Shown here: positions 1 to 14,294 of the stretch, piece after piece
Position numbering within the stretch: the stretch's first letter is position 1
Layout of the letters: each line of letters begins with the position of its first letter
Source: an uncultured cyanobacterium
GTDB taxonomy: Bacteria > Cyanobacteriota > Cyanobacteriia > Cyanobacteriales > CAWCAG01
NCBI GenBank assembly: GCA_963803805.1
Contig: CAWDOD010000002.1
Span: 1,216,001 to 1,280,000 of the forward strand
Direction: 5' to 3'
DNA length: 64,000 nucleotides
The notes under the pieces: generated by a model
Database searches by the model: none
Told to the model about the DNA's origin: nothing
What the model saw: the letters and a program-made list of their open reading frames with translations, nothing else
Position numbers and translations under genes: made by a program

Positions 1-832
1 AAAAGACCAAATTATTAGGAGGAATATTTTTTTGCTCAATACGTTTTCCTTGCAAACCGATATGGACTAATTTATGTTCTTTATGCCAAGGGGCTTGAGC
101 TATTTCTGTGGTCAAGGAGAATGGTTTATCACCCTCTGGTTGAGGATAGTTATAAGTGAAATAATTAATTAGTTCTTCAATTCTGACGGCATCTTTGGGA
201 GGTAGTTCACCTTCTTTAATAAAGCGCCTAACATTACTATAGGAAGCTGTATCTACATCAATAGAAAAGGTTGATAAAGGTTTATTTATAGTTCTAAAGA
301 AAGGATTTTCATCAATAGGATTATATTCTTCGCGATTAAAATCTTCTGGTAAATTATTATCAGGACGACTAGGAGAAGGATAACGAGTAATTTCAGCATT
401 ACCACCACTTACTCTTCCTAATGTTCTAAGCGGAATACCAGGAGAAGGCAAATCTCTACGCCCTATTACTTCTGCTTCATTAACCGTTAATACAGGTTTA
501 AATTTCTGTTGTAACTGTTGCAGTGCGGTGATATCTTCAGGAGAAATAATACTAGCGTTACCTTGATTTTTTATTTCCTCTAGTTTATTTAAACAATCCT
601 CAACAGCAAGAGCAAAAGCCTCACGAGTTATAGTTTCTTTTATGATAATTTCTTCGCTACATTCATACTTTTTACTAATTGCTTCAAGGGCTTGAAACTG
701 CTCATCTTCTGCTGTTATTTCTGCTTCTTCTGCCACAGCAGGATCAAGAGAAATCAAGAGTGCGATCGCCAAAGTTAATCCTAAGCAAAATGAGCTTAAA
801 ATTGCAGCTATGGACGAGATAAATTTATTCAT
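1..832 (-). CDS. Exported YfbK-like vWA-domain protein with N-terminal SLH-like domain (runs off the window edge)
   Basis: Not in the ORF track; translated by hand from ATG at 832 (GAGGGG RBS upstream): signal peptide MNKFISSIAAILSSFCLG..., then FQALEAISKKYEC...TITREAFALAVEDCL..., then PLSTFSIDVDTASYSNVRRFI...PPKDAVRIEELINYF typical of the YfbK N-terminal domain. Confidence 0.85.
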   Translation of the reverse strand, partial: MNKFISSIAAILSSFCLGLTLAIALLISLDPAVAEEAEITAEDEQFQALEAISKKYECSEEIIIKETITREAFALAVEDCLNKLEEIKNQGNASIISPEDITALQQLQQKFKPVLTVNEAEVIGRRDLPSPGIPLRTLGRVSGGNAEITRYPSPSRPDNNLPEDFNREEYNPIDENPFFRTINKPLSTFSIDVDTASYSNVRRFIKEGELPPKDAVRIEELINYFTYNYPQPEGDKPFSLTTEIAQAPWHKEHKLVHIGLQGKRIEQKNIPPNNLVF

Positions 833-1126
833 TATTTTCCCCTCTTTAGAAATATTCATTTTCTATCAGTTTTATCCACTGAAAAGAACTTGTATAACTA
901 ATTCAAAACAATACCCCCTTGGAAAATACTCACCTTGCCACTATAATAAACAATCAGGAACAGCAAGTAGTCTGAGTAAATAACGAATAAAGTTGTACTC
1001 TGGTTGCGTCTAAATCAAGCTTGCTGAGGGTAATTTACTAATTTGTCATGAATGCAGGGAAGGAGAGAAAATACTTCTCATTGTTCCCTTGTGCAGTTCA
1101 GTTCTTAGATTAGGGTTAAAAGTGTC

Positions 1127-1369
1127 ATGCAATATACATTAAACCATGAACAAGAATTGAAGGAGAAAAAAGTGCTTATGTATCCTAACCAAAGTTCTTC
1201 GTTGATAGAAAAACAATCAAGTCTGGAAAATTCAGATAATTCTACTGAAAAAAAGGCAGCGGAGCAAAGAAAAGAAAGGGATAGCAACTCATCTAAACCA
1301 GAGGGGCAAAAAAAAGCGGCAAATTTGAACGAATCTTCTCCTTTAAAGAATTTATTAAATTTAAAGTAG
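1127..1369 (+). CDS. Small hydrophilic hypothetical protein (80 aa)
   Basis: ATG-started ORF filling an otherwise empty gap; S/K/E/N-rich, no recognisable motif. Confidence 0.35.
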   Translation: MQYTLNHEQELKEKKVLMYPNQSSSLIEKQSSLENSDNSTEKKAAEQRKERDSNSSKPEGQKKAANLNESSPLKNLLNLK

Positions 1370-1507
1370 TAGAAAATTAGTGACGATTTTTGAATAACTA
1401 CATAGCTTAGGGATTAGCAGTTATTTGATCTTGCAATTTGCTTTCTAAGCTATTTTTCCTAACAACACGAATTGTCTACGCATAATAGCTTAATTATATT
1501 TGGAATA

Positions 1508-3541
1508 TTAAAAAGTCGCTTCTGCCTTACGACTTTTTAATAAGTAGGTAGGCATTTTTCCTTTGCCTTTTATATCAACCAAACCTCGTTGTTGGAAATT
1601 ATATTCATCTCTAAGACGCTGAAAAGTTTCTTCTGTTACTTGTATTTCATCAGCAATACCTTGAGATTCCATACGACTAGCAATATTCACAGTATCTCCC
1701 CACAAATCGTAGGTAAATTTTTTCGTACCAATCACCCCTGCCACCACAGATCCTGTATTAACTCCAATGCGGATACTAAATGGTTTCTCTTGGGTGGTAT
1801 TAAATCTCGCCATAACTGTTTGTATATCTAAAGCCATTTCTGCGATCGCTTCAGCATGATTTTCGCGCTGGGTAGGCAAACCTCCAACTACCATATAAGC
1901 ATCACCAACGGTTTTGATTTTTTCTAAGCCATATTTTTCGGTTAAGCGATCAAACTCAGAAAAGATAGCATTAAGAATTTCCACTAATTCAATAGGAGAT
2001 AAAGAAGAAGCCAAATGAGTAAAACCAACTAAATCAGCAAATAAAACTGTCACCTCATCAAAACTATCCGCAATAGTACTGGGTTGCTGCTTTAATCGCT
2101 CAGCAATAGGTAAAGGTAAAATATTTAGCAACAGAGTTTCTGTTTGTTTTTGCTCTTCCCGTAAAGCCAACTCTACTTTTTTCCGTTGAATAAATTGACC
2201 TAATTGATTGCCAATTGCTGTCATAATTTTCAGCACTTCTGGGTCAATTTTCTGTGTTTCTCGACTAAAGAAAGTCATTACTCCCAAAACTTCACCACGA
2301 TTTTGAATTGGGAAACCAAAAGCAGAACTCAAACCTGCTTTGACAGCGAAAGAACTCTGACCAAAATCAGCATCTTCATTAACATTTGTAATCCATTGAG
2401 GACATTGGCTAGCCCAAACTCTTCCTGCTAAACCCATACCAGAAGGAAGATAAATTTGTTTAGTTACTTCAATAAATTTTCCTGCGGCATCAGCATTTTT
2501 TGACCATATTTCCATACGCCTTAAAGAAATATCACTGCTAACTTCAAGATGATTCTTAGAATTTCTATTAATAGTAATAGGAGTCCAAAGTTCTCCAATA
2601 TTCCAACTAAGACTTTCGCAAACAGATTGCAAAATCTCAGGAGTAGCTTGTTCCAAAGAAGAAGTTTCTGAAAGGACTCTGGCTACAGAATACTGAACTG
2701 CTTGACGCTGTTGAGCGCGTTTACTTTGAGTTATATCTCTACCTATATAAATAAAATCATAGCTTCCTTTTAGTTCTGTTTCTACTAAGGAACAAGAAAA
2801 AGAAATCGTTAGATGTTCCCCGCTTTTATTGCGACAAGTTATTTCAATATTTTTGCAAATTCCTTGTTCTTTATTAGCTAATAATTCTCTATGTACGTTC
2901 GTTAAAGATATATTATTATCATTAATTAAAGCTAAAAACTGATTACCAACAAGTTCATTTTCTCCATAGCCTAAAACATCTTGGGCTGCTTGATTAATAG
3001 CTTTAATAGTCCCTTCAAAATCGAGAACAACCATGGCATCAGCCATAGAAGTAATCAATTTACTAAAATACTGTTGTGAAGCACTAAAAGCCTCAAAAAA
3101 GAGATTTGCCTCATTATTAACTTGTACTAAATTTCGTTCTAATAAAATTTGTTCCGTAACATCTTCTAGAAAAACAATCAAACATTTTTGCTCATTCTCC
3201 GGATGTTTGTAGAGATTAACGAATAAATTAATAAAGATAGTATCTTTTTCTTCTCTAAAACGACTAATACTCCGCAACTGTAAATTATCTTTTTCTTCTA
3301 GTAAAATGCTTTGCAAATCTTCTTCATAACCCTGTAATTCTGCAAATCCTAGGCGAATATCTTGTCCTCTATTAATAGTATTTGCTTCTACTACAAATTG
3401 CGTTGCCTTCCAAGACCGATCAATTATAGTTAGGTTACTATCTAAAATAATATATTCTAAATGGTTAGGAACTACAATTCTCCTGGTTAAGGACTTCATA
3501 GGTGCTATGTATTTGACAGAACCGTGCATATGTTTGACCAA
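1508..3541 (-). CDS. Class III adenylate cyclase with PAS-like, PAS and GAF domains (start may be ATG 3499)
   Basis: FADLVGFT, KIKTVGDAYM, YDLWGDTVNIASRMES with ATP-specifying Lys/Asp; PAS (INQAAQDVLGY...GRDIT); GAF (GLAGRVW...AFGFPI). Confidence 0.93.
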   Translation of the reverse strand: MVKHMHGSVKYIAPMKSLTRRIVVPNHLEYIILDSNLTIIDRSWKATQFVVEANTINRGQDIRLGFAELQGYEEDLQSILLEEKDNLQLRSISRFREEKDTIFINLFVNLYKHPENEQKCLIVFLEDVTEQILLERNLVQVNNEANLFFEAFSASQQYFSKLITSMADAMVVLDFEGTIKAINQAAQDVLGYGENELVGNQFLALINDNNISLTNVHRELLANKEQGICKNIEITCRNKSGEHLTISFSCSLVETELKGSYDFIYIGRDITQSKRAQQRQAVQYSVARVLSETSSLEQATPEILQSVCESLSWNIGELWTPITINRNSKNHLEVSSDISLRRMEIWSKNADAAGKFIEVTKQIYLPSGMGLAGRVWASQCPQWITNVNEDADFGQSSFAVKAGLSSAFGFPIQNRGEVLGVMTFFSRETQKIDPEVLKIMTAIGNQLGQFIQRKKVELALREEQKQTETLLLNILPLPIAERLKQQPSTIADSFDEVTVLFADLVGFTHLASSLSPIELVEILNAIFSEFDRLTEKYGLEKIKTVGDAYMVVGGLPTQRENHAEAIAEMALDIQTVMARFNTTQEKPFSIRIGVNTGSVVAGVIGTKKFTYDLWGDTVNIASRMESQGIADEIQVTEETFQRLRDEYNFQQRGLVDIKGKGKMPTYLLKSRKAEATF

Positions 3542-3963
3542 CTTTTACTAAAAAAATAATTTACTAAATAAATAGAATTAAGACTCTTTCATAAGAGTGC
3601 CTTTCTATCAAACTTTTCTATCTGTTTGGTCAAGGTAGATCCCAGTATTTCATATTCAGCTACTTGATAAAGTGATTTCACTTATATACAGGTTGTGAAT
3701 TTCACGGTTATTTAGTGTGATTACGTATGTCTATTGACCGCGATCGCACTTCTCACAAAATTGTGATTAGTTGAGTATGGGTTTGCGATCATGATCACAA
3801 ACCCAGATTTTTGCTGATTATCCAAAACCTATCTCTACAGTTGTTGAGTTAGAGAAAGCTTAGCGCTAGCCTTGTTACTATGACTACGCTACAAAGAATC
3901 ATCAGGAATTATTTAGTTAAATAACACAAAAATGCCAATAGGGGCATCACCCCTCAGATATCT

Positions 3964-4491
3964 TTAAGTCACTATGGTAGATGATAGTGTGTGGAACATC
4001 TCGTCTACATCTTTGCCAGTTTTAGCTGAAGTTGTGTAGGTAGCAATCACTTGGGGGAAATCTTGCAGATTATTTTCCGCCAGTAACTTTTCTTGTTTCT
4101 CCTCGTCTAACAAATCGGTTTTGTTAAAAGCAACAATACTAACTCCTTTGGGATTAACTGACTTGAAAAGCTTGATGTGCTGCGGGATATTGTCAATGGT
4201 TTCTGGGCGAGTTACATCGCAGACAATAATCACTCCTGCAGCACCTTGTAAATAGGTAGGGGCGATCGCTTTGAACTTAGTCTGTCCTTCTATATCCCAG
4301 ATGAGCAGTTGTACTTGGATAGGTTCACTCTCACCCTTGTCCTCTAACTGCACCGCCTTGCGGGAAATTTTTACTCCTACAGTGGATAAGTATTGATCGC
4401 TAAACTGGCGATCTACAAAGCGTCGGATTAAGCTAGTCTTACCTACACTAAAGTCACCAATGAGACAGATTTTTTTGGAAATAGTGGTCAT
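3964..4491 (-). CDS. Rab-like small Ras-superfamily GTPase
   Basis: G1 GDFSVGKTS, G2 YLSTVG, G3 WDIEGQ, G4 NKTD, G5 TSAK in a 175-aa stand-alone G domain. Confidence 0.93.
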   Translation of the reverse strand: MTTISKKICLIGDFSVGKTSLIRRFVDRQFSDQYLSTVGVKISRKAVQLEDKGESEPIQVQLLIWDIEGQTKFKAIAPTYLQGAAGVIIVCDVTRPETIDNIPQHIKLFKSVNPKGVSIVAFNKTDLLDEEKQEKLLAENNLQDFPQVIATYTTSAKTGKDVDEMFHTLSSTIVT

Positions 4492-4493
4492 TT

Positions 4494-7111
4494 CTAGTTT
4501 GATTTTCCTGGCGGGCTGAACAAATTAAAGCGCACACATCTACTTAACCACATTGGCTGTTCAGGAGTCACATCTGGGGGCATTTTAGCTGTACCGGATA
4601 TTTTAATTCGTTTAGGATCTACTCCTTGCTCCTCTAAGGCTTGTTTTACCGCCTTAGCCCTACCTGTGGCAAGTTCTCTATTTTCTTTTTCGCCTCCTAT
4701 GCGATCTACATGGCCAGTTATTTCCAGTTTAGCCTTGGGGTTAATTTCCAGGAACTCTTGAATAGGAACGATAAACTCACTCATATATTCTGGCTTAAGT
4801 GTCTTAGAACCCAATTCAAAATAGATACGTTCTTCTAAAGCTTTTAATTTTAAGTTATCAATATTAACAGAGTTAACCCCAGCAATTTTTTCTAATTCTT
4901 CAACAATCTTAGGGATATCTGTAGCTTTGTCTACTGTCCCTTTAACAGTAACGATTCTATCTTCATAACTACTGGTAATCTCAATACCTGGTTGTTCCTC
5001 AAGTAGGGCTGTCTTTAATTCTATTGCCGTATCAACTAATTCTGGTGGTACATCTACCGCCACAATTTGATTCTCGATTTTCAAATCGGGATTGTTGGCT
5101 TGGATAATTTCTGTGGCCCTTTCTTTAAGGGCAGGGTTCGGTACTCTTCCGGTTAAAATTAATTTGTTACCCTTCAATTTCGGGGTTATGTTAGCAAAGT
5201 ACAACTCCGGTGCTTGGGCTATCGTTGTAGTAGTTTTTGCTTCAATACGTTCGGCCAGATTAGCTCGATAAAGATAAAAGCCCCAAGGCAAACCTAACAG
5301 AAACAAGATTAACAACGCTAATTTTAAAATTCCTTGGGGAGAACGCTTTTCTGTTTCTTCTTGCTCAACAAATTTCTCTACTGGAGCAAGTTCCATTAGC
5401 CGTTCGAGCCAAGAGTGAATTTCTTCTGGAACTGTGGTGGGATCACCGGCAAAGTTTTTTATTTCACTGCCATACTTCTGATTAATCTTGCCCATAGTGA
5501 AGCGCATTTTTTTGATAAATACATCTGAAGGTTTTCCTTTAAGCACCACCGCCAGATAGCAATAGCCTGCTGGTTCAATAATTACCCTAGAGTTGCCATA
5601 TTCAATTTCACTAAGTTCAGAAATATTTTCTGATTGAATAATACAATCATTAACAAAACCGCGAATAGCTGTGAGCATTCCTGCCAACATATCTGCTTCG
5701 AGTCTTTCGTCTTCTGAAGGCTGAGCTTTTTCAATCACCAACCCAGAAGTTGTCTGAATCAAAAATACCGCCTTAACCGTAAAACCGACTGATTCGAGGA
5801 GAATTAGTTCTGCATCAGATACCCCTTGTACCTTCGCACGCATCTTACGCATTACTCCTTGGGGACTCAAGGTGTGTTCCACTTTTTCGTTAATAGAACT
5901 AACTACTTCTCCCATATATTTAGAGACGGTACTGCCAATTACTGGGTAAAGGGCATCTACCATCGCTTCCCTTTCACATTCGATTTGGGCCCTAATTGCT
6001 TTACCCATTTCCGGCCCTAGGGCTTCAGAAATGGCGTTTTGTTGTAGCTTACTTTGCTCCCTAATTGCTGTAGCGATTTCTGGGGCCAGGGCCTTAGCTA
6101 TTTCTTCAGGAGAGTCTTGAATTTGCTTCCTAATGGCCCCAGGAATTAAATCAGCGATCGCAGAACTCATCGCGCCACGATTTTGGGAAGAGCGTTCTTG
6201 AATAACGCGATCAATAACCGGAACCATACGTCCTAGAATTTGGTCTTGAGATTCAGATAACTGGCTTTTGAGGAGTTCTACCATCAAAGGTACAATCTCA
6301 TTAAGCATCTGTGTGGTTTTGTCGGCTTGATGCTCTACTTGGACAAATTTGTCCTCTAATTCCTCTACTGACTGGCGGAGGCGTTCTTGTTCAATAGATT
6401 CTCTTATAGATAGAGAACGACGGGTCTTAGTTTTGCGAGGTAGCTTTACTTTTCCTGATTTTGCTAGTAGTTCTTGCAAATCATCCCAAACAGAAGATAG
6501 AGTCCTACTAGAGTTCTGCTGAGGCATGGATTCGAGCCACTCAGGGACAGGTAAAGAAGTGGTCTTGTTTTTTGGTTCGGGATGATTATCTTTTGGTACT
6601 TCAGTCGTAGGATTGAGGTTTTCTGAAGTGCTTTCTTCAAAGGAAGGCTGTTCCTGTGAAGGGCTTTCTGTTGAGGAGATAATGCTCTGTTGTTCAGTAT
6701 CAGCTTTCTTTTCCTTCTTTCGCTCTTCTAGCTGAACTTTAGGGGCATTGAGGTTTTCTGAAGTGCTTTCTTCAAGGGAAGGCTGTTCTTGTGAGGAGCT
6801 TTCTGTTGAGGAGATAATGCTCTCCTCAGTTTCGGCTTTATCTTCCTTCTCTTTCTCTTCAGGTTTAGATGAAAAACCTTTTTCTTGAGGTTTAACTACA
6901 TTTTCCAACATCGCCCATAAATCAGCTTGATGCTGGTTCTCAGTTTCTTTTGTAGAGGGAGAAACTGAAGGGGAAGAAAGCTCTTTTTTTCTTCTTGTAG
7001 CTCCAATAATAAATCAACCAATTCTTCCATAGGTTGTTCTTGGGGTGACAATTCTGCTTGGGAACTTAAAAGCGAGTTTTCTTGATTGGGTTGTTCTTTT
7101 GATAACGCCAT
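4494..7111 (-). CDS. Membrane protein: disordered N-terminus, helical region, roadblock/longin-like domain, one TM helix, two BON-like domains, C-terminal OmpA domain; one frameshift near 6985
   Basis: ORFs 6896-7111 and 4494-6911 join if one base is added to the A7 run at 6984-6990 (EEKKELSSPSVSPSTKETENQHQADLWAMLENV); TM ILKLALLILFLLGLPWGFYLY; OmpA motif IYF...ITGHVD..G....N..LA..RA..V. Confidence 0.85.
6613..6823. repeat. Intragenic ~76-bp direct duplication (6613-6688 and 6748-6823)
   Basis: Two near-identical copies encoding SIISSTESxSQEQPSxEESTSENLN. Confidence 0.9.
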
Positions 7112-7414
7112 AAACTGCCGTCCAATATGCTCAATTATTCATTTTCTCTCTTCAGGCTGCGAAACAGTAGTCTGTCACCTTTAGCATGAGACTATAAACA
7201 ATTAAGATATCCCAAGCTCTTAAGTTCAGTCTGCTCGGTTTAAAGGAGTTTGTAATCGCCAACCAGCTTTTTTGGTAGTTAAGTATAGTTTCTGTCAATT
7301 ATACTTAACTACCATAGTAAATGTATTCACTAATCTCAAGTTAGAGTGAGAGACTAGGGCGGCATTTTAAACATTTACTAATTTCGAGTAAGATTCCTTA
7401 AGCTTAAAAGAACT

Positions 7415-8014
7415 TTATTGTTGTTCTGGCAAAAGAAAATCTGCTTGGACATTATTGTCTGAAGCCTCCTTTAAATCGGGAACGAAATCTGCTCCTTTGA
7501 TTTTGATACAAAGTTCAAACAGTACCTCGGCTAAATCATCCCTCGAAACTTTAATATCTTTTAAAGCATCTAGTTCTGCTTCAATCTTGCTGATAATCTG
7601 ATTCTTAAAGCTGTATATATCTTCTTGCAGCTTTTCTTTATTTTGAGAAATTTCTTCTCTAATCGTATCGGTTTTGAGCTTAAAGTCTTGGCTAAGAGTA
7701 TCTATATCTCTGGTTGTGGTTCTTTCCCTTCTAGCGCTATCTTGAATTATTTTATTAATTTCTTCATGGGTAGTTAAGCCCAAGTACTTAATTTTTTTTT
7801 CTAGAGAATTAACAGAATCTTGCAGCTTTTCAGACAAAGATGATTGTATCTCAGATAACTGTTCGCGCATTTCCTGCTTAAAGCCAGTTAAATCTGACTC
7901 CAACTGGTTAAACCTTCCGGCAAATTCTTCTTCTTTGCTACCAAACAATAAGTCGCGAATTTGATCGATATTACCGAGTCTTTCCCGCATCTCATCTTTA
8001 CTAATGTCATTCAT
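7415..8014 (-). CDS. Coiled-coil/apolipoprotein-like hypothetical protein
   Basis: GGAGG RBS; N-terminal NIDQIRDLLFG and C-terminal VSRDDLAEVLFEL flank a heptad-rich body. Confidence 0.85.
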   Translation of the reverse strand: MNDISKDEMRERLGNIDQIRDLLFGSKEEEFAGRFNQLESDLTGFKQEMREQLSEIQSSLSEKLQDSVNSLEKKIKYLGLTTHEEINKIIQDSARRERTTTRDIDTLSQDFKLKTDTIREEISQNKEKLQEDIYSFKNQIISKIEAELDALKDIKVSRDDLAEVLFELCIKIKGADFVPDLKEASDNNVQADFLLPEQQ

Positions 8015-8273
8015 GTTCTACCTCCATTAATTTAGTTATTAGTATTTTGTGCTGATACTTCCTGATAATTTCTTACAAACTGCCGCTTTCGCTTACTGTC
8101 TAGATACGGTGCAAATAGACAATTATTATTTGTAGTTTGCAATAAAAAGCGCTCAGTCGTTTCGTCTGCTGGCAACTTTGTTATGCACTCGGATACAACT
8201 ATATATCATGGTTAAGCGTATTGGTCAGAAATTCCTCTGCTTCTTGTATCCGGGTTAGTCAAGTCCTGTATTT

Positions 8274-10256
8274 TTAGGAAGTGGGAGAATTATTAGCTAG
8301 CCATTTTAACCATTGTAAAAATGAACTAAGGGGATTTAAAGGAGTTAACCCTGGGGCGTGATTAGAGGCTAAATGGTCTACAACTTTCAAAGCTGTGTAT
8401 TGTAAACCCAAGAAGCTATCAACAGCCGCATAGGGGCCCCCTAACGTAGTTGCACCTGCTGCATACATTCTTCCCTTCCCAGTCCGCATTTGTACCAACT
8501 CAAAATTATTGCTTACCCAAAGGCGTTTAAGGTGGTTGAGGGGGAGTTGGTAGTGGTTGATGAGATCATTAAGGAGAGGACTAGCGCTGACATCGGCATC
8601 CAGCCCTGTGGCATCGATGATGAAATCAGCTTGTAAGCGCATTTCTCCTTTCATGTTTTTTTCTTGAATATAAGTAATAACATCTTCAGATTCTTTCTCC
8701 ACCCTTTTTACTTCGCCAAACTCGATTCTGTACCACCCCTGACTTAAACCGTCCCTAACAATTTTCTGCCAATCACGACGATCGGCGGTGGTAGTTCCTC
8801 CCCAGTCAGCAATCAATCTTTTGCGTTGTTCTGGGTTAGCTTTTTCTAATTCAAGGCGCAAATCCCCTCCCCAACAAGCTTTAGGCCAATTGAAGGGTTG
8901 AAATTCGAGATGATTTTCCACTAGTCTTTGGGTTTGGCGAAATTTCTGCCCCACGGGTTTGGGAGAACGCATTAAGTTAATGAGGCGAATGTGAGGGTTT
9001 TTACTTCTTGCTTCATAAACCCGTTGAATAATCCGCGAAGCAACGATTCCCCGCCCCCGAATCACTACTGTACCCCCAAGTTTTTCTAAATGTTCGTAAA
9101 CATGATCATGGGGTTCGTAGGCGTTGACCACTGATTTAAAATCCTGGGTCTTTTCCCGATAGGCTTGTAAGTCAGGGAGAAATTTAATGGCTGGATAACC
9201 AATGGCTAAATGGAGGTAGCTGGCGACTAAAAAAGCCCGTTCCCGCCCTGTACTAGTAGTCCGAGAATAGGCGATCGCATATCTACCGTCACTAGTTTGG
9301 CGAATGCTACGGGCGCTACCATAACGGAACATTTGTTGCCAACCGATGCGTTGTTGTTCCCTATCTACAGAATCAAAGACGTTTTCAGCTTTAGGGGTAT
9401 AGGTTTCGCTAAAAGTTGGCTCACTAAAAACTTGCCACAAATATCTTAAAGAATTGGTTAATTTTCCTTTCTGTAAATCCCTCCATGCTTCCCGCAAGGC
9501 ATAACTAGGCCAGCCCCAAATATTATCAGGACAAGAATCGGAATTAGACCGCAATCTTTCTCGGAGGGGGATTTGAGAGTTGAGGCAAAGTTGTTTGTAA
9601 CGCCCGTAGGGCAGTGTATCTACCCCTAAAGCAATAATTTGCTCTGGTTTAACTCCGTATATACGTAAAAAATCCACCCACACAAAACTCCCCATTCCTG
9701 CACCGATAGTTAAATAATCCACCTCATCTACAGGCAAGCCTGTGGCATAGAGGTCTTGGAGTTCAACTTTTTCAGCTTGGAACGCCGCTGGGGGAAAACT
9801 TCTAGGGGCAGGAGTTACAGGTACTAGTTGCTGCTGTTGAGGGTCGAGTACATTTGTAGTGGGGTTGAAAACGATTTGAGAATCTTTCCCTGGAGAGGGA
9901 GGAGGTGCAGTTGTGCCAAATGAGAGAATAATGGTGATTTCATAGGGGCCAACTTGGATGGTGTCCCCATTATCTAAAGTAGCTTGTTTTTGAGCTTGGC
10001 CATTGACTAAAATGCCATTACGACTATTTTGGTCTTTGACTACCAAACCACCGTTTTCCCAGGCAATAAGGACATGAAAGCGAGAAACTTCCAAGCTATT
10101 AAGTACCAGCCTAGAAACCCTCTGATTACCAAAATTAACAGGCATACGCGGGAACTCCCGACCCAAAGCAATAGGAAGTTGCAATACTGGTTCTCGCAGT
10201 TCTCCAGTAGCCAGATCTGCCCAACTTAATTTGACTTGTAGAGGAGAGAAAGCCAT
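8274..10256 (-). CDS. FHA domain fused to a FAD/NAD(P)-binding oxidoreductase-like domain
   Basis: FHA LGR...VSRFH...SRNG; Rossmann-like TIGAGMGS and VIRGRGIVAS; IIDATG motif. Confidence 0.8.
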   Translation of the reverse strand: MAFSPLQVKLSWADLATGELREPVLQLPIALGREFPRMPVNFGNQRVSRLVLNSLEVSRFHVLIAWENGGLVVKDQNSRNGILVNGQAQKQATLDNGDTIQVGPYEITIILSFGTTAPPPSPGKDSQIVFNPTTNVLDPQQQQLVPVTPAPRSFPPAAFQAEKVELQDLYATGLPVDEVDYLTIGAGMGSFVWVDFLRIYGVKPEQIIALGVDTLPYGRYKQLCLNSQIPLRERLRSNSDSCPDNIWGWPSYALREAWRDLQKGKLTNSLRYLWQVFSEPTFSETYTPKAENVFDSVDREQQRIGWQQMFRYGSARSIRQTSDGRYAIAYSRTTSTGRERAFLVASYLHLAIGYPAIKFLPDLQAYREKTQDFKSVVNAYEPHDHVYEHLEKLGGTVVIRGRGIVASRIIQRVYEARSKNPHIRLINLMRSPKPVGQKFRQTQRLVENHLEFQPFNWPKACWGGDLRLELEKANPEQRKRLIADWGGTTTADRRDWQKIVRDGLSQGWYRIEFGEVKRVEKESEDVITYIQEKNMKGEMRLQADFIIDATGLDADVSASPLLNDLINHYQLPLNHLKRLWVSNNFELVQMRTGKGRMYAAGATTLGGPYAAVDSFLGLQYTALKVVDHLASNHAPGLTPLNPLSSFLQWLKWLANNSPTS

Positions 10257-10337
10257 TTACTCAGTTATCATTAAACATTAAACATTGAACATTTTATAGA
10301 GTTTCATAATTATCAATTATTGATTAGCTACTAGCCA

Positions 10338-10673
10338 TTAGCTACTAGCAACCCCTAATGTAATAGTAATTTCGTAGGGATCAATAAATAAGACATCTCT
10401 GTTAGCTAGGATGCTACGAGTTTTTGCTTGACCATTAATTAAAACTCCGTTACGACTAGTTTGGTCAGTGACGAGGAAACTACTATTTTCCCAAGTGATT
10501 AGGGCGTGGAATCGAGATACTTGAGAATCTTTCAATACCATGCGAGAAACTCGCTTCCCTCCAATTTCTTCTGGCATATCGCTAAATTCTCGCCCCAAAG
10601 CAATAGGTACAGTTAAAATTGGCGATCGCTTCTTTCCGGTAGAGGGTTCTTGCCAACTCAATTGAATTTGCAT
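10338..10673 (-). CDS. Stand-alone FHA domain protein (111 aa)
   Basis: ATG 10673 (MQIQLSWQEPSTG) avoids overlap with the upstream gene; LGR...VSRFH...SRNG; close paralog of the N-terminus of 8274-10256. Confidence 0.85.
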   Translation of the reverse strand: MQIQLSWQEPSTGKKRSPILTVPIALGREFSDMPEEIGGKRVSRMVLKDSQVSRFHALITWENSSFLVTDQTSRNGVLINGQAKTRSILANRDVLFIDPYEITITLGVASS

Positions 10674-10699
10674 AGGAATTTTTAAGTAAGGAAATAGGG

Positions 10700-11248
10700 T
10701 TAGCTTTTGGGAACTAAAATACTCGCTGCCCCCGCTAAAGAAGTGCCGCACCACTGACAGCCCAAATCTATTCTTTCGTAGGAGGAAATGCGATGACAAT
10801 GGGGACATTCTAATCCATAGTTACCACTATTCAAAGCAGGGTTATTAACAGCTTGAGGAACTTGCTGAGGTGGAGGAGGCACAATTACTGTTTGGGGAAA
10901 GTTGTTGCTAGGTAAATCTATAACCATTTGCACAACGTTGAGAGTCATTTGCCCTAAATTAATCACGCTACCTTGACTAAGTTTTGCTTCTCCTTGAATG
11001 ATTCTTTTTCCATCTACAAAGGGAGGATTAGACTGTCTTAAATTTCTTAATAAAAATTGCTTTCGGTGAACATCGAAAAATATTTCTATATGCAATCCGG
11101 AGACAGTAGGATCATTTAAAACTACGTCGCAACGCCCAGGATTGCGACCAATGCGAACAGTTCCAGAATTCTTGCTTGGTTGATTTTCTTTAATATTTAT
11201 AGTTTGAGTTTGGTTTGCTTCTTGCCAGCTTAAAGTAAGTTCAGACAT
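10700..11248 (-). CDS. FHA domain protein with C-terminal zinc ribbon
   Basis: IGR...VSGLH FHA motifs; Pro-rich linker; CPHC...CQWC. Confidence 0.87.
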   Translation of the reverse strand: MSELTLSWQEANQTQTINIKENQPSKNSGTVRIGRNPGRCDVVLNDPTVSGLHIEIFFDVHRKQFLLRNLRQSNPPFVDGKRIIQGEAKLSQGSVINLGQMTLNVVQMVIDLPSNNFPQTVIVPPPPQQVPQAVNNPALNSGNYGLECPHCHRISSYERIDLGCQWCGTSLAGAASILVPKS

Positions 11249-11292
11249 AGTTGTTATTCATTTATAATCAAGCCGTAGGATTTAAAATCCCC

Positions 11293-11586
11293 TTAACCAT
11301 GAGATAAAAATTCTATTTTCGGCAACAAAGGATCTTCTACTAAACCAATACCCTGAAATCCCCAACGTTGCAACAAATTTTTAAGTTGACTTCCCGAAAT
11401 AGATTCCACCACAAAACGATTAGCAACTTCCTGGGCATGGGTATTAAGATAACTAAGAGCTTCAAAACTTTCACGAAAGATTAATAAATACCCTGTTTGC
11501 TTTTGATTTGGTTCTACTTGAGGACGAGCAACTAAATATTTACCATCTGTTTGAGAACGGATTAAATAGTGGATGTCATTTATCAT
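11293..11586 (-). CDS. Hypothetical protein (97 aa)
   Basis: Clean ATG ORF co-oriented with neighbours, globular-looking composition. Confidence 0.7.
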   Translation of the reverse strand: MINDIHYLIRSQTDGKYLVARPQVEPNQKQTGYLLIFRESFEALSYLNTHAQEVANRFVVESISGSQLKNLLQRWGFQGIGLVEDPLLPKIEFLSHG

Positions 11587-11686
11587 TTAAGAAGGGAATA
11601 GTGTTAATTAAAAATTAAAAATGTAAAGGCTTAAAGATTATCTTCGCCAAATAATAATTAGCAACAATTAGCAATTAGCAAATAAC

Positions 11687-12730
11687 CTATTTAAGATTTT
11701 CTAACTTAATACGAGGATCGACAGCTTTAAGGAGTAAATCTGCTAATAAGTTGCCAATAATGAGCATTAATGCTCCCATCATTAAACTTGCCATCACCAA
11801 ATAAATATCTTGAGCAGTTACAGCTTGTAAAATTAGTCTTCCCAAACCTGGCCAATTAAAAAAGAATTCGGTAATAAAAGCACCACTAAGTAAGGTAGCA
11901 AATTCAAATCCTAACAGAGTAATCAAAGGGTTAATCGCATTACGCAAGGCATGAATGTAAATTACTTTATTTTCCGGCAATCCTTTAGCACGGGCCGTTT
12001 GAATATAATCTTGGCGCAATACATCTAATAATTCTCCCCTCATCAACCTTTGTAAAGCGGCAAAACTAGTAATACTTAAAGCAATGGTTGGTAAGATTAA
12101 ATGCCAACCAATATCTAAAATTTTACCCAAGGGCGATAAATCCGCATAATTGATGCTAGTCATTCCTCCTACTGGAAATAAAGGAGAGACATATTGAGCT
12201 ATAACTAAAAGAATTAAAGCGGTAATAAAACTAGGAAATCCGTTACCTAAATAACTTAAGAAACGTAATAAGCGATCGCTAAAACGATTTTGATTGACAG
12301 CGCTAAAAATTCCTAAAGGAATTGCAATAGTCCAAGTAATTAAAATAGACGAAAATGCTAATAAAAGTGTAGCAGGTATGCGGTCTAAAAGTAGAGAAGA
12401 TACAGAACGAAAAGATACAAAACTAGTACCAAAATCTCCTCTCGTTACCACTCTAACCAACCATTTCCAATACTGTATAATTGCTGATTGATCTAGACCA
12501 AATTGCTTCCTTAATTCTTCAATGCGTTCTGGGGAAATTTGTGGATTCTGCTGCAAGGTACTTACATAGTCTCCAGGTGCAAACTGAATAATAGTGAAGC
12601 AAAGCATTGAAGCTAACAGCAGAGTAAGAAATGCTTGAGCTAAGCGTTTAATTATGTAGAGAAATGTCTCACTGCCTAGAAAAGTTTGCAGAAAGCTCGG
12701 TTGGGAACTAGTTATTTTATTAGTAGTCAT
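11687..12730 (-). CDS. Peptide/nickel ABC transporter permease (OppB/DppB family)
   Basis: GLDQ...QY..W...GDFGTSF; DYIQTARAKGL...HALRNA EAA loop; FNWPGLG. Confidence 0.92.
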   Translation of the reverse strand: MTTNKITSSQPSFLQTFLGSETFLYIIKRLAQAFLTLLLASMLCFTIIQFAPGDYVSTLQQNPQISPERIEELRKQFGLDQSAIIQYWKWLVRVVTRGDFGTSFVSFRSVSSLLLDRIPATLLLAFSSILITWTIAIPLGIFSAVNQNRFSDRLLRFLSYLGNGFPSFITALILLVIAQYVSPLFPVGGMTSINYADLSPLGKILDIGWHLILPTIALSITSFAALQRLMRGELLDVLRQDYIQTARAKGLPENKVIYIHALRNAINPLITLLGFEFATLLSGAFITEFFFNWPGLGRLILQAVTAQDIYLVMASLMMGALMLIIGNLLADLLLKAVDPRIKLENLK

Positions 12731-12868
12731 AATATAGCCATTCTATTTAGGATGTGAGTAAAGAGTTACTTGTCATAGGGAATAGTCAATAGTCAATATG
12801 AGAAGAGAAATACAGTCTTTTTCTAAACAGGATAAACGTCACTAAACTTTTACAATTTGTTTACTACG

Positions 12869-12893
12869 GCAACTAGCAACTAGCAACTAGCAA
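12869..12893. repeat. Short heptamer tandem repeat (GCAACTA)
   Basis: gcaactagcaactagcaactagcaa just downstream of apt; same unit as the 15.7-kb array on the opposite strand. Confidence 0.8.
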
Positions 12894-12897
12894 AATA

Positions 12898-13416
12898 TCA
12901 ATACTCAACCAAATTAATAATCGGTACATCCGGTAAAATCTTACGACCTTCCAAAGCAATTAACTCAACGATAAAAGCGAAACCAATTAATTTACCATCA
13001 CTATTTCCGATCAACTCTGCTGTCGCTTTAGCTGTACCTCCTGTGGCAATGAGGTCATCTACTACTAAAATTTTAGCCCCAGTCTCAAAAGCGTCTTGGT
13101 GCATTTCTAAGGTATCGCTACCGTACTCTAGTTCGTATTCCACCCGATGGACTTCAGCAGGTAGCTTTCCTGGTTTGCGTACTGGAATAAAACCGATTCC
13201 CAACTGATAGGCTAGAGGCGGACCAAAAATAAATCCCCTAGACTCCATACCTATAATATAATCTGGCTTTAAATCTGCTTCATTAATCTTATGTGTCAAA
13301 GCATCAATAGAATAGCGCAATCCCTCCGGATTGTTCAAAACAGTAGTAATATCCCGAAAGACGATTCCTGGTTTAGGAAAATCTGGTATGTTGCGAATTA
13401 AAGATTTAAGATCCAT
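12898..13416 (-). CDS. apt: Adenine phosphoribosyltransferase
   Basis: [42 protein letters not shown]. Confidence 0.97.
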
Positions 13417-13667
13417 TTTTGAAGCAAGCTAATTTTCGTTAAGGATTACTGGTATATCTATAGCAATTTTAGGGTGAAATATGAATATAAAAGCACCCTA
13501 TGAATATAAAGGAAAGGAAAGGCTCTGCCGTTACCGCAGGCTAAACTGTAAAGTAAGCGACCCAATCAGAACTTTAGCTGAATTGATCATAATTGGGAAA
13601 ACGGGTCGTCCCTACACTAACTAATAACTGATAACTGAATCATTGATAATTGATAATTGATAAAAGA

Positions 13668-14294
13668 ATGACCCATTCCGCAAGCGTAATGCCAGATTAT
13701 AGTCCTCAAGAACAGCAGCCACTGATTCTGGACAATTTACCAGATATTTCTATTTCCGACCAGGGATGTTCCCCTAAAGTTAAACGGCACATAGATTTGC
13801 TCCTCCTTGCCCTTGAAGCTTTAGAATTAGGAGGATCTGAAAAAATGTTAGCCACAGCTAAAGAATTGGAACTTCAGGGGATTATTAAAAGTCGAGTTGT
13901 CTTCTGGCGTTTGCGCTGTACTAATCCCTGGCGACGTTCCCATACACGACGGCCTTTAAGCTTAGAGGAAGCCAAAGCTTTGGTGGTAATTGCTAACTAC
14001 CGGGCGAAAAACCTAACTGTATTAATTCGCCAGTTAGTGATGGCGCAACAACAAATGCAGGAAAAGGGTCTACCCTTAGAACAGCATTTTCGTTTATCAG
14101 AATATTTAGAACGTTTTCGAGCGCACTTCCGTAGTCGCATGAATCCACGGCGTGCTAAAGTAACAGCCTATGCTTCCTCAGAAGAAAACTTGAACCAATT
14201 GGCTCTTTCTTTGTTGAATCAATTACTGTTCTGTACTGGAACTTCTGGAATGCAGCGATTCTGGACTAGTTTGTTTGATGGAGAGGTGGCATGA
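13668..14294 (+). CDS. Conserved cyanobacterial protein (DUF3038-like)
   Basis: IDLLLLALEAL...WRLRCTNP...LLFCTGTSGMQRFWTSLFDG; ATG 13668; overlaps next gene by ATGA. Confidence 0.8.
   Translation: MTHSASVMPDYSPQEQQPLILDNLPDISISDQGCSPKVKRHIDLLLLALEALELGGSEKMLATAKELELQGIIKSRVVFWRLRCTNPWRRSHTRRPLSLEEAKALVVIANYRAKNLTVLIRQLVMAQQQMQEKGLPLEQHFRLSEYLERFRAHFRSRMNPRRAKVTAYASSEENLNQLALSLLNQLLFCTGTSGMQRFWTSLFDGEVA

Follow-up and report, generated by a model that had tools for sequence, protein, structure and literature searches.

We describe here a four-gene locus in a 64,000-nucleotide (nt) stretch of DNA from an uncultured cyanobacterium (assembly GCA_963803805.1, contig CAWDOD010000002.1, positions 1,216,001 to 1,280,000); this whole stretch is referred to here as the window. 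The four genes share one orientation on the minus strand and encode a coiled-coil protein, a transmembrane (TM)-BON-OmpA protein, a Ras/Rab-like GTPase and a PAS-PAS-GAF class III adenylate cyclase. Their open reading frames (ORFs) lie at 7415-8014 (199 amino acids, aa), 4494-6911 (805 aa), 3964-4491 (175 aa) and 1508-3541 (677 aa), and the features of the locus given below are all on the minus strand. The original prediction, drawn from the sequence alone, had placed four co-oriented genes within these limits, and the ORFs agree with it, with revised starts for the cyclase and OmpA-family genes (see below); its domain calls for all four genes also hold, on the evidence of Pfam matches and fold models. 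It had further reported a spacing of 2 nt between the OmpA-family gene and the GTPase gene, and the junction indeed reads ...AAC TAG AA ATG ACC..., with 2 nt separating the stop codon TAG from the GTPase ATG. By ORF coordinates, the same 2-nt spacing occurs at five other loci (L032, L033, L038, L049 and L055). The sequence of the locus matches a cyanobacterial copy of the published Group 1 Rup (Rup1) four-gene module, itself a computational prediction.

The Rup family and its Group 1 were defined by Wuichet and Søgaard-Andersen 2015 (PMC4316618). As their account of Group 1 describes it, the neighborhood contains a coiled-coil protein, a protein with an unknown domain followed by a TM region and OmpA, a GTPase without a conserved Gln in the G3 motif, and an output protein; outputs are 'typically' GGDEF/EAL or histidine kinase proteins with an N-terminal region whose invariant Gln was suggested to act in trans, and cyanobacteria are among the taxa listed (PMC4316618). 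The same account gives a hypothetical interaction model for the system and, within it, no member is characterized. The window contains each of these elements: a single-domain Ras GTPase of a family with a variable G3 Gln, a coiled-coil neighbor, an unknown-domain-TM-OmpA neighbor and an output protein with the N-terminal Gln. Since the same four-gene neighborhood, with the same four components in the same roles, has been published (PMC4316618), we count the module as an already-known kind. The original prediction had named the Rup family correctly without tying it to the published Group 1 neighborhood, and its statement that the module was undescribed does not stand; its domains, gene linkage and proposed GTPase contact fared better, and its overall interpretation is thus supported in part. 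The window also departs from the description in PMC4316618. A class III adenylate cyclase adjoins the window GTPase whereas GGDEF/EAL or kinase proteins are the typical outputs, the domains called 'Unc' and 'N-term' are unassigned there while they are modeled here as longin/roadblock and PAS folds, and the window GTPase happens to have a Gln at the G3 position even though it is not conserved in the group.

The GTPase gene (3964..4491) encodes a 175-aa Rup1-type Ras/Rab-like small GTPase (Pfam Ras, 3.3e-30, residues 7-173, with additional matches to Roc and small_GTP). In a comparison of its profile with the PDB, Rab1 and Rab14 were the top matches at 1e-32, a Rab likeness that reflects overall profile similarity. 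We found that the eukaryote-like set of G1-G5 motifs is complete, with GDFSVGKTS (GxxxxGKT) as G1, T37, WDIEGQ (DxxG) as G3, NKTD (NKxD) and SAK. Orthologues occur in 22 of 40 relatives from the same order at 55-67% identity, and the congener has one at 91%. Among 26 homologous sequences D66 of the G3 motif is invariant; the position corresponding to Ras Q61 (position 70 of the GTPase) is Gln in 9, His in 7, Ser in 4, Glu in 3, Asn in 2 and Lys in 1, with Gln in the window GTPase itself, and the position corresponding to Ras G12 is occupied by Phe in 25 of the 26. Both the unconserved G3 Gln and the bulky Phe at the Ras G12 position point to hydrolysis that would need help in trans. The protein ends in ...LSSTIVT and contains no Cys in its last 80 residues, so it lacks the prenylation Cys of eukaryotic Rab proteins. 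Among bacterial small GTPases, Rup1 proteins are reported to be the nearest by sequence to eukaryotic Rab, Ras, Rho and Ran, and recent trees cluster Rup1 with these families and with Asgard RasL, although the part of that work that treats Rup1 presents it only as a named clade (bioRxiv 10.1101/2024.02.28.582541).

The wall-anchored membrane protein gene spans 4494..7111. Its main ORF (4494-6911) encodes 805 aa, and the product would be approximately 872 aa if read through; the OmpA-family protein of a close relative (P0004) has 859 aa. Sequence comparison indicates that the gene starts at ATG 7111 and that the 71-aa ORF at 6896-7111 is the N-terminus of the protein. This ORF is colinear with the first 40 codons of the congener gene before the frame is lost, and the main frame is open and homologous 5' of ATG 6911. 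The two are out of frame because of a 1-nt difference from the congener at approximately 6991/6992, where blastn against the congener locus (L031) shows a single base missing in an A-rich run; this frameshift may be either a real mutation or an assembly error. The displaced ORF encodes a conserved N-terminal amphipathic helix motif, MEELVDLLLELQ (6995..7030), and a similar L-x-x-L-h-x-L-L-x-(D/E)-L motif is found near the N-terminus of nearly all aligned OmpA-family orthologues. From N- to C-terminus the protein consists of an acidic, Ser-rich and poorly conserved stretch, helical repeats, a conserved block, a hydrophobic helix and BON-BON-OmpA. The helical region of the cytoplasmic part (residues 180-375, 5787..6374) is made of short I-A-x-A-L-x-P-E-type repeats, is modeled as all-helical with low confidence, and climbs in conservation from 27% to 70% along its length. 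The block behind it (residues 376-511, 5379..5786) is the most conserved part of the protein, and residues ~300-500 are 57-73% identical to those of orthologues.

We found no sequence relative that would identify this conserved block: the cytoplasmic part has no Pfam or NCBIfam match, Robl_LC7 is not matched at E <= 0.01, and a profile of the region gave 0 matches to PDB sequences at E <= 0.01. An AlphaFold2 (AF2) model of residues 180-520 (m21078c3008c3), built from 25 sequences, shows long helices followed by a beta-beta-alpha-beta-beta-beta-alpha domain, with a mean predicted local distance difference test (pLDDT) of 63 overall, about 60-90 across the longin/roadblock part and 80-90 in the last domain. 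Foldseek against the PDB matched this domain to AP sigma, LAMTOR p14/MP1, MglB, TRAPP, Mon1-Ccz1 and a Streptomyces roadblock protein, at E-values of 3e-4 to 2e-3. Structural alignment with VIA-align, in which model residues 197-332 correspond to residues 376-511 of the protein, gave Z 12.6 for Sec22b (root-mean-square deviation, rmsd, 2.8 over 123 residues) and for the VAMP7 longin domain, followed by TRAPP (12.5), Fuzzy (12.3), an Asgard roadblock protein (11.7, rmsd 2.4 over 103 residues), LAMTOR (11.1), MglB (10.8) and Mon1-Ccz1 (10.4). In the model the domain is a five-strand alpha/beta sandwich with flanking helices, as in longin/roadblock proteins, and is matched over most of its length; its helix alpha-2 carries an invariant Arg (R417 of the protein). 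Longin and roadblock are tied within ~2 Z units. Because of the AF2 model and the Foldseek and VIA-align matches, a longin/roadblock identity is supported at the fold level, which agrees with the cytoplasmic longin/roadblock domain originally proposed.

A single TM helix, ILKLALLILFLLGLPWGFYLY (residues ~527-547, 5271..5333), read by eye from the translation, separates this part from the C-terminal domains, and its position between predicted cytoplasmic and periplasmic domains fits an N-in topology. Beyond it lie two stretches of putative periplasmic BON domains (4842..5219; Pfam BON 9.3e-12, best over residues 632-690), with NCBIfam ArfA_OmpATb_N matching residues 580-675 at 3e-4, and an OmpA-like peptidoglycan-binding domain (4575..4823; Pfam OmpA 5.4e-16, residues 697-779), which NCBIfam matched to Pal, YiaD and MotB-type models. 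The OmpA domain contains GHVDRIG and NRELATGRAKAV, which we take to be the peptidoglycan-contacting motifs of the OmpA family. The module's first gene, at 7415..8014, encodes the coiled-coil protein, for which Pfam and NCBIfam gave sub-threshold coiled-coil matches only. In the ESM Atlas its matches were all unnamed clusters from cyanobacteria; among named clusters the nearest, SF-assemblin at 0.76, was probably a chance match.

The fourth gene encodes the adenylate cyclase, composed of an N-terminal domain (N-domain), a PAS domain, a GAF domain and a class III catalytic domain. Its start is most likely ATG 3499 rather than TTG 3541, because every orthologue aligns from that Met (residue 15 of the 677-aa ORF). 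The revised gene (1508..3499) encodes 663 aa and is separated from the GTPase stop by 464 nt. This spacer contains a terminator-like hairpin from a consensus scan (3931..3948), 16 nt past the GTPase stop. Of the module's parts in the window genome, the cyclase has the loosest linkage. The spacer also holds the palindrome GCGATCGC at 3740-3747, presumably the HIP1 repeat typical of cyanobacteria, and a second inverted repeat, GTTTGTGATCATGATCGCAAAC, ~40 nt upstream of GCGATCGC on the coding strand. Rfam gave no family at gathering score across window positions 1-14000. The catalytic domain (1535..2068; Pfam Guanylate_cyc PF00211, 1.8e-66) is of the ATP type, and AC9, AC8, AC5 and mycobacterial Cya/Rv1625c were the closest PDB sequences by phmmer. 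Aligned to AC9 C1/C2, it shows FADLVGFT, KIKTVGDAYM and YDLWGDTVNIASRME, which places it among class III adenylate cyclases; we take these motifs to hold the full metal-binding (two Asp), ATP-specifying (Lys, Asp) and transition-state (Asn, Arg) residues. The canonical PAS domain lies at 2726..3040 (Pfam PAS_9, 3.9e-10, residues 168-272 of the 677-aa ORF) and the GAF domain at 2186..2662 (Pfam GAF_2, 2.4e-10, residues 294-452).

The first 150 residues of the cyclase, which form the N-domain (3050..3499), have no Pfam or NCBIfam match, including to any Pfam PAS model, and their profile gave 0 matches to PDB sequences at E <= 0.01. An AF2 model (m0ee23cc3e190, pLDDT 86) shows a PAS fold with a long C-terminal helix, and Foldseek against the PDB returned 219 matches at E <= 0.001, the top ones being the PAS domain of Rv1364c and LOV proteins at 2e-6. 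On this model the N-domain is a divergent PAS domain extended by a long C-terminal helix, and we predict that it serves as a GTPase-docking module. Its conserved motifs are FPELxGxE, R80, Y89, EDVTE and LEQxLVQxxNE; among 31 N-domains, 97% have Q126 and 90% have Q122. A tree of 34 such domains places that of the window cyclase in a clade (support 98/96) of seven cyclase-linked N-domains from six families; this clade and the window-congener pair within it are the only well-supported groups, and 21 of the 31 inner branches stay open.

The window genome contains one such GTPase and four N-domain proteins, namely the module cyclase, an N-domain-PAS-PAS-kinase, a second, split N-domain/cyclase and a 144-aa stand-alone N-domain. 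The kinase is a histidine kinase of 670 aa that is unlinked to the module and followed by an OmpR-type response regulator (L140:3213-5960, G000 contig C6), and it is a candidate second output of the window GTPase. The second N-domain/cyclase gene (L141:3874-5344, same contig) occupies two overlapping ORFs, a 245-aa ORF that covers the N-domain and the first part of a PAS domain and a 272-aa ORF that covers the cyclase catalytic domain; the split suggests a frameshift.

We modeled the window's own GTPase and N-domain as a complex with ESMFold2, giving it an alignment of each together with GTP and Mg. The interface score (ipSAE) was 0.74, 0.75 and 0.73 in three runs, and the best of 3 controls scored 0.00; at least 95% of contacts agreed between runs and the pLDDT of the partner was at least 82. 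Of 80 solved complexes 58 score this high, as do 2 of 110 mismatched pairs; this calibration is only roughly valid here because custom alignments and riding ligands were used. As PDB sequences include no relative of the N-domain at E <= 0.01, the score is unlikely to come from a remembered complex. On the side of the N-domain the predicted interface comprises residues 53-58 (FPELxG), 74-80 (including R80), 89 and 118-136, and the helix 118-136 that faces the GTPase includes Q122, Q126, N129, E130 and L133. On the side of the GTPase it comprises residues 14-15 (P-loop), 34-44 (switch I), 63-84 (switch II) and 95-97. In the model S36 is contacted by both N129 and Q126, and N129 also contacts F14 and S15. 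The 25 interface residues include 11 of the 29 N-domain positions that are conserved in at least 80% of sequences (hypergeometric p = 0.0016). The prediction supports the view that the P-loop and both switches of the GTPase bind the PAS-like N-domain, and it favors the direct contact between GTPase and cyclase N-terminus that had been proposed from the sequence.

The original prediction had made conserved linkage across genomes a test of its reading, and we found that linkage is conserved. In a set of 24 loci from 22 genomes of the same order, 23 have the OmpA-family gene beside the GTPase, 19 have the coiled-coil gene upstream of that OmpA gene, 21 have an N-domain protein and 13 a cyclase domain; in 6 of the 24 there is a 4-nt overlap between the N-domain gene and the GTPase stop. 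The congener locus retains both the gene arrangement and the gap before the cyclase, at 89-91% protein identity. A wider scan of one genome per species gave 565 related loci, of which the best 80 were analyzed and only those with enough flank were counted. The OmpA C-terminus lies at most 350 nt upstream of the GTPase in 67 of 76 of these loci, the longin region is linked in 61 of 70 and the coiled-coil gene in 47 of 58. Downstream, the N-domain is found within 350 nt in 61 of 74 and within 4 kb in 51 of 60, and a cyclase domain (at least 55% identity) within 4.6 kb in 29 of 60. Nearly all of the best 80 loci carry cyanobacterial names, including Microcoleus, Oscillatoria, Planktothrix, Moorena, Calothrix, Rivularia, Spirulina and Xenococcus; three are labeled 'uncultured bacterium' and one (L122) 'Candidatus Gracilibacteria bacterium'.

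According to alignments, the Pfam-less N-domain region is present in each of the 22 downstream proteins scanned, and in 21 of them it stands at the N-terminus with a Pfam PAS match behind it; in the protein downstream of the GTPase at L053 a Trans_reg_C domain precedes the N-domain. What follows the N-domain and PAS is a histidine kinase (with or without receivers), GAF-GGDEF, GAF-cyclase or nothing, and histidine kinase or GGDEF proteins are as frequent as cyclases among the cyanobacterial outputs. In one relative (G015, contig C12; L055:8094-11787) a divergent paralogous cluster lies beside the main one. It encodes a 593-aa OmpA protein (26% identity, no BON match), a 165-aa GTPase (37% identity) that likewise starts 2 nt past the OmpA stop, and a 382-aa kinase whose N-terminus gave no significant profile match to the N-domain (hhalign probability 0.6%, E 0.1).

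The four parts of the module also co-vary in presence and absence across the 40 relatives, a pattern rather than a statistic. The longin region is present in 22 of 22 GTPase-bearing relatives, plus G032 (61% complete) and G038; a coiled-coil homologue is present in 22 of 22, plus G012 and G038; and the N-domain is present in 21 of 22, being absent from G017. None of the four parts was found in 14 of the 40. At the G038 locus (L143:5916-8929), unrelated convergent genes follow the coiled-coil and longin-TM-BON-OmpA genes at the place where the GTPase is expected.

The longin/roadblock fold regulates Rab and Rag GTPases in eukaryotes, and TRAPP, Mon1-Ccz1, Fuzzy-Inturned and Ragulator/LAMTOR are the best structural matches of the window's cytoplasmic domain, a likeness at the fold level only, with 8-15% identity. 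These eukaryotic regulators are heterodimers or larger complexes that act on lipid-anchored GTPases, whereas the window has a single domain and a GTPase without a prenylation Cys. Yeast Ras2 activates the adenylate cyclase Cyr1, to which it binds through a Ras-association (ubiquitin-like) domain. The window pairing would follow the same logic, a Ras-family switch acting on the N-terminal regulatory domain of an adenylate cyclase, with binding that is predicted here. It differs in that docking involves a PAS fold with an output helix and in that the catalytic domain is of the bacterial homodimeric class III, and the two pairings arose independently. The analogy to yeast Ras drawn in the original prediction thus holds for functional logic and fails for the docking domain. 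Rap1GAP supplies a catalytic Asn in trans, and TBC RabGAPs supply Arg and Gln. The window resembles these systems in having a GTPase of a family without a conserved catalytic Gln and, as residue contacts in the model only, Asn129 and Gln126 beside the P-loop and switch I; the N-domain has no fold relationship to either.

Among bacterial systems, MglA/MglB of Myxococcus xanthus also pairs a small Ras-superfamily GTPase with a roadblock-fold regulator (MglB, VIA-align Z 10.8), and we know of no PAS-headed outputs for MglA. MglB is small and soluble, whereas the corresponding fold in the window sits in a wall-anchored membrane protein that lacks a Pfam Robl_LC7 match. In MglA a Thr is described in place of the G3 Asp (PMC3000849), unlike the WDIEG of the window GTPase, which falls outside MglA on this point. 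The actinobacterial conservon (CvnA-D; Mfp in mycobacteria) is likewise a multi-gene module, in which a small GTPase, a roadblock protein and a membrane sensor connect to two-component-type signaling (PMC4316618; PMC13015309). The conservon, however, has an MglA group 2 GTPase, a separate roadblock protein and a histidine-kinase membrane component and, unlike the window module, has no OmpA anchor, coiled-coil protein or PAS-like docking domain.

We consider it fairly probable that the Rup1 module forms a signaling chain from a wall-tethered longin protein through a Rab-like GTPase to outputs headed by the PAS-like N-domain. A single-pass inner-membrane protein would be tied to peptidoglycan by its periplasmic BON-BON-OmpA part, and its longin/roadblock domain would act as a membrane platform and likely regulator, as guanine nucleotide exchange factor (GEF) or GTPase-activating protein (GAP), of the unlipidated GTPase, which would be translated directly behind it. 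In its GTP form the GTPase would use its P-loop and both switch regions to dock on the PAS-like N-domain and on the signaling helix at the C-terminus of that domain. This N-domain would head a set of outputs consisting of the adjoining PAS-GAF adenylate cyclase, the unlinked histidine kinase, the second (split) cyclase and the stand-alone N-domain protein. Docking is proposed to set output activity, here cyclic AMP (cAMP) synthesis, because the bound helix joins the PAS domain to what comes next, and the conserved Gln/Asn on that helix, lying against the P-loop, may speed GTP hydrolysis. This reading builds on gene content, modeled folds, conserved linkage and co-occurrence and on the predicted contact between GTPase and N-domain; we infer from these a GEF or GAP role for the longin domain, a role for the coiled-coil protein, the direction of flow and a stimulus, and flow in the reverse direction, rather than from envelope to cAMP, fits equally well.

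Several observations weigh against this chain. The score of the GTPase/N-domain complex is a model confidence, not a measurement, and its controls included no other PAS domain. Three relatives (G012, G022 and G032, the last 61% complete) have an N-domain without the GTPase, and G038, which is 99% complete, keeps the coiled-coil and longin-TM-BON-OmpA genes with no GTPase or N-domain found. The co-occurrence counts overstate the support because related genomes are not independent. Within the window genome, a hairpin and 464 nt set the cyclase off from the GTPase, four near-invariant positions of the family consensus are changed in the window N-domain (P53A, F73L, Y89F and Q122R), and the OmpA-family gene is frameshifted near its 5' end, so that the conserved N-terminal helix may be lost if the frameshift is real. 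Our search of the literature found no experimental or functional study of any member of a Rup1 module.

Three of these observations would also be expected if the window cyclase were uncoupled from the GTPase, its adjacency being a relic of an ancestral operon and the enzyme an independent PAS/GAF-regulated adenylate cyclase: the gap and hairpin after the GTPase gene, compared with six loci in which the N-domain gene overlaps the GTPase stop, the departures from consensus, and the frameshift in the upstream OmpA-family gene, which could mark decay of the module. We regard this as improbable. It was the window's own two sequences that scored 0.74 against 0.00 in the complex prediction, and the congener keeps the same arrangement and gap at 89-91% protein identity. 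The deviating residues are common to the congener while Q126, N129, E130, G57 and R80 are kept, the main ORFs of all four genes are intact, and the hairpin is weak evidence because the terminator scan gave no more sites than shuffled sequence. A larger share of our doubt goes to an inside-out arrangement, which we nonetheless judge unlikely, in which the PAS/GAF outputs are the sensors and their N-domains serve mainly as GAPs that give Gln/Asn in trans. The target of the GTPase would then be the wall-anchored longin and coiled-coil proteins, with a polarity, gliding motility or envelope function, and cAMP would not be an output of the GTPase. This arrangement accounts for the variable G3 Gln (9 of 26) and the Phe at the Ras G12 position (25 of 26), which indicate that hydrolysis needs help in trans, and for the modeled placement of N129 at P-loop residues 14-15 and S36 and of Q126 at S36, the entry site of GAP fingers. 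It also suits the stand-alone N-domain proteins without an output domain (144 aa in the window genome, 237-256 aa at L044 and L049) and the named genera with the module, which are mostly filamentous and which we take to be gliding. The roadblock protein MglB and the GTPase MglA are described as controlling polarity in Myxococcus, and the idea of a Gln acting in trans has already been put forward in the published account of Group 1 (PMC4316618). However, since the helix bound in the model is the output helix of the PAS domain, control of the enzyme behind it is at least as good a fit, fusion to so many different output enzymes would be needless for a pure GAP, and the modeled placement of Q126 and N129 is one of residue contacts. 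The inside-out arrangement and the wall-to-output chain are not exclusive because an effector can also be a GAP.

An anti-phage or conflict system, either Zorya-like (a MotB-type anchor with a coiled coil) or Pycsar-like (a cyclase), is very improbable. Weak PADLOC domain matches point toward it (PycC at 8.6e-14 for the cyclase, ZorB at 1.8e-5 for OmpA and the ZorA tail at 1.3e-5 for the coiled-coil protein), but these matches extend no further than generic domains. The locus lacks a MotA-like channel and an effector, its cyclase carries the Lys/Asp that mark class III enzymes as ATP-specific, and the gene order is conserved in most loci over many cyanobacterial families, unlike patchy defense islands. 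Given the lack of any full-length PADLOC match with system partners, we rejected a defense-system identity. The passages on Rup, OmpA and small GTPases in an eLife 2020 paper on conflict systems (PMC7159879) are unrelated to the module.

Returning to the wall-to-output chain, we consider a stronger form of it to be possible, though we are more inclined to doubt than to accept it. In this form the PAS-like N-domain would be a new kind of small-GTPase effector module. A Rab-like switch would be held at the inner membrane by a peptidoglycan-tethered longin GEF/GAP, its GTP form would clamp the PAS core and output helix, one docking domain would directly gate adenylate cyclase, diguanylate cyclase and histidine kinases, and the Gln/Asn pair on the helix would trigger GTP hydrolysis. 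If this were true, a prokaryotic Ras-to-cyclase pathway would have been built from PAS and longin parts, and the longin-Rab pairing of eukaryotic membrane traffic would have a bacterial precedent. What is added here to the text of the published account is the cyclase output, the two modeled fold assignments (longin/roadblock and PAS) and a specific predicted interface. These turn a published gene-neighborhood cartoon into concrete, testable statements: a longin/roadblock partner, a PAS-type docking domain shared by the outputs, and a defined interface between the P-loop and both switches on one side and the FPELxG motif and the Q126/N129 helix on the other. If the chain is as we propose, one GTPase might coordinate cAMP, cyclic di-GMP and phosphorelay outputs from a site fixed to the wall, which would bear on the way in which second messengers are tied to envelope or positional cues in filamentous cyanobacteria and on the deep history of the longin-GTPase partnership.

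Three tandem FHA-domain genes (182, 156 and 660 aa) lie directly upstream of the module on the minus strand (8274-11248). The 660-aa protein has a long C-terminal part without a Pfam match, and the FHA genes are kept in the congener. We rejected these genes as a part of the module since the 660-aa protein gave no tblastn match in the 103 other loci examined (L032-L055 and the best 80). At the start of the window, a vWF_A-domain protein (2-859, minus strand) runs off the edge. Beyond the FHA genes there are an ABC-transporter permease (11687-12730), a phosphoribosyltransferase (12898-13416) and, on the plus strand, a DUF3038 protein (13650-14294).

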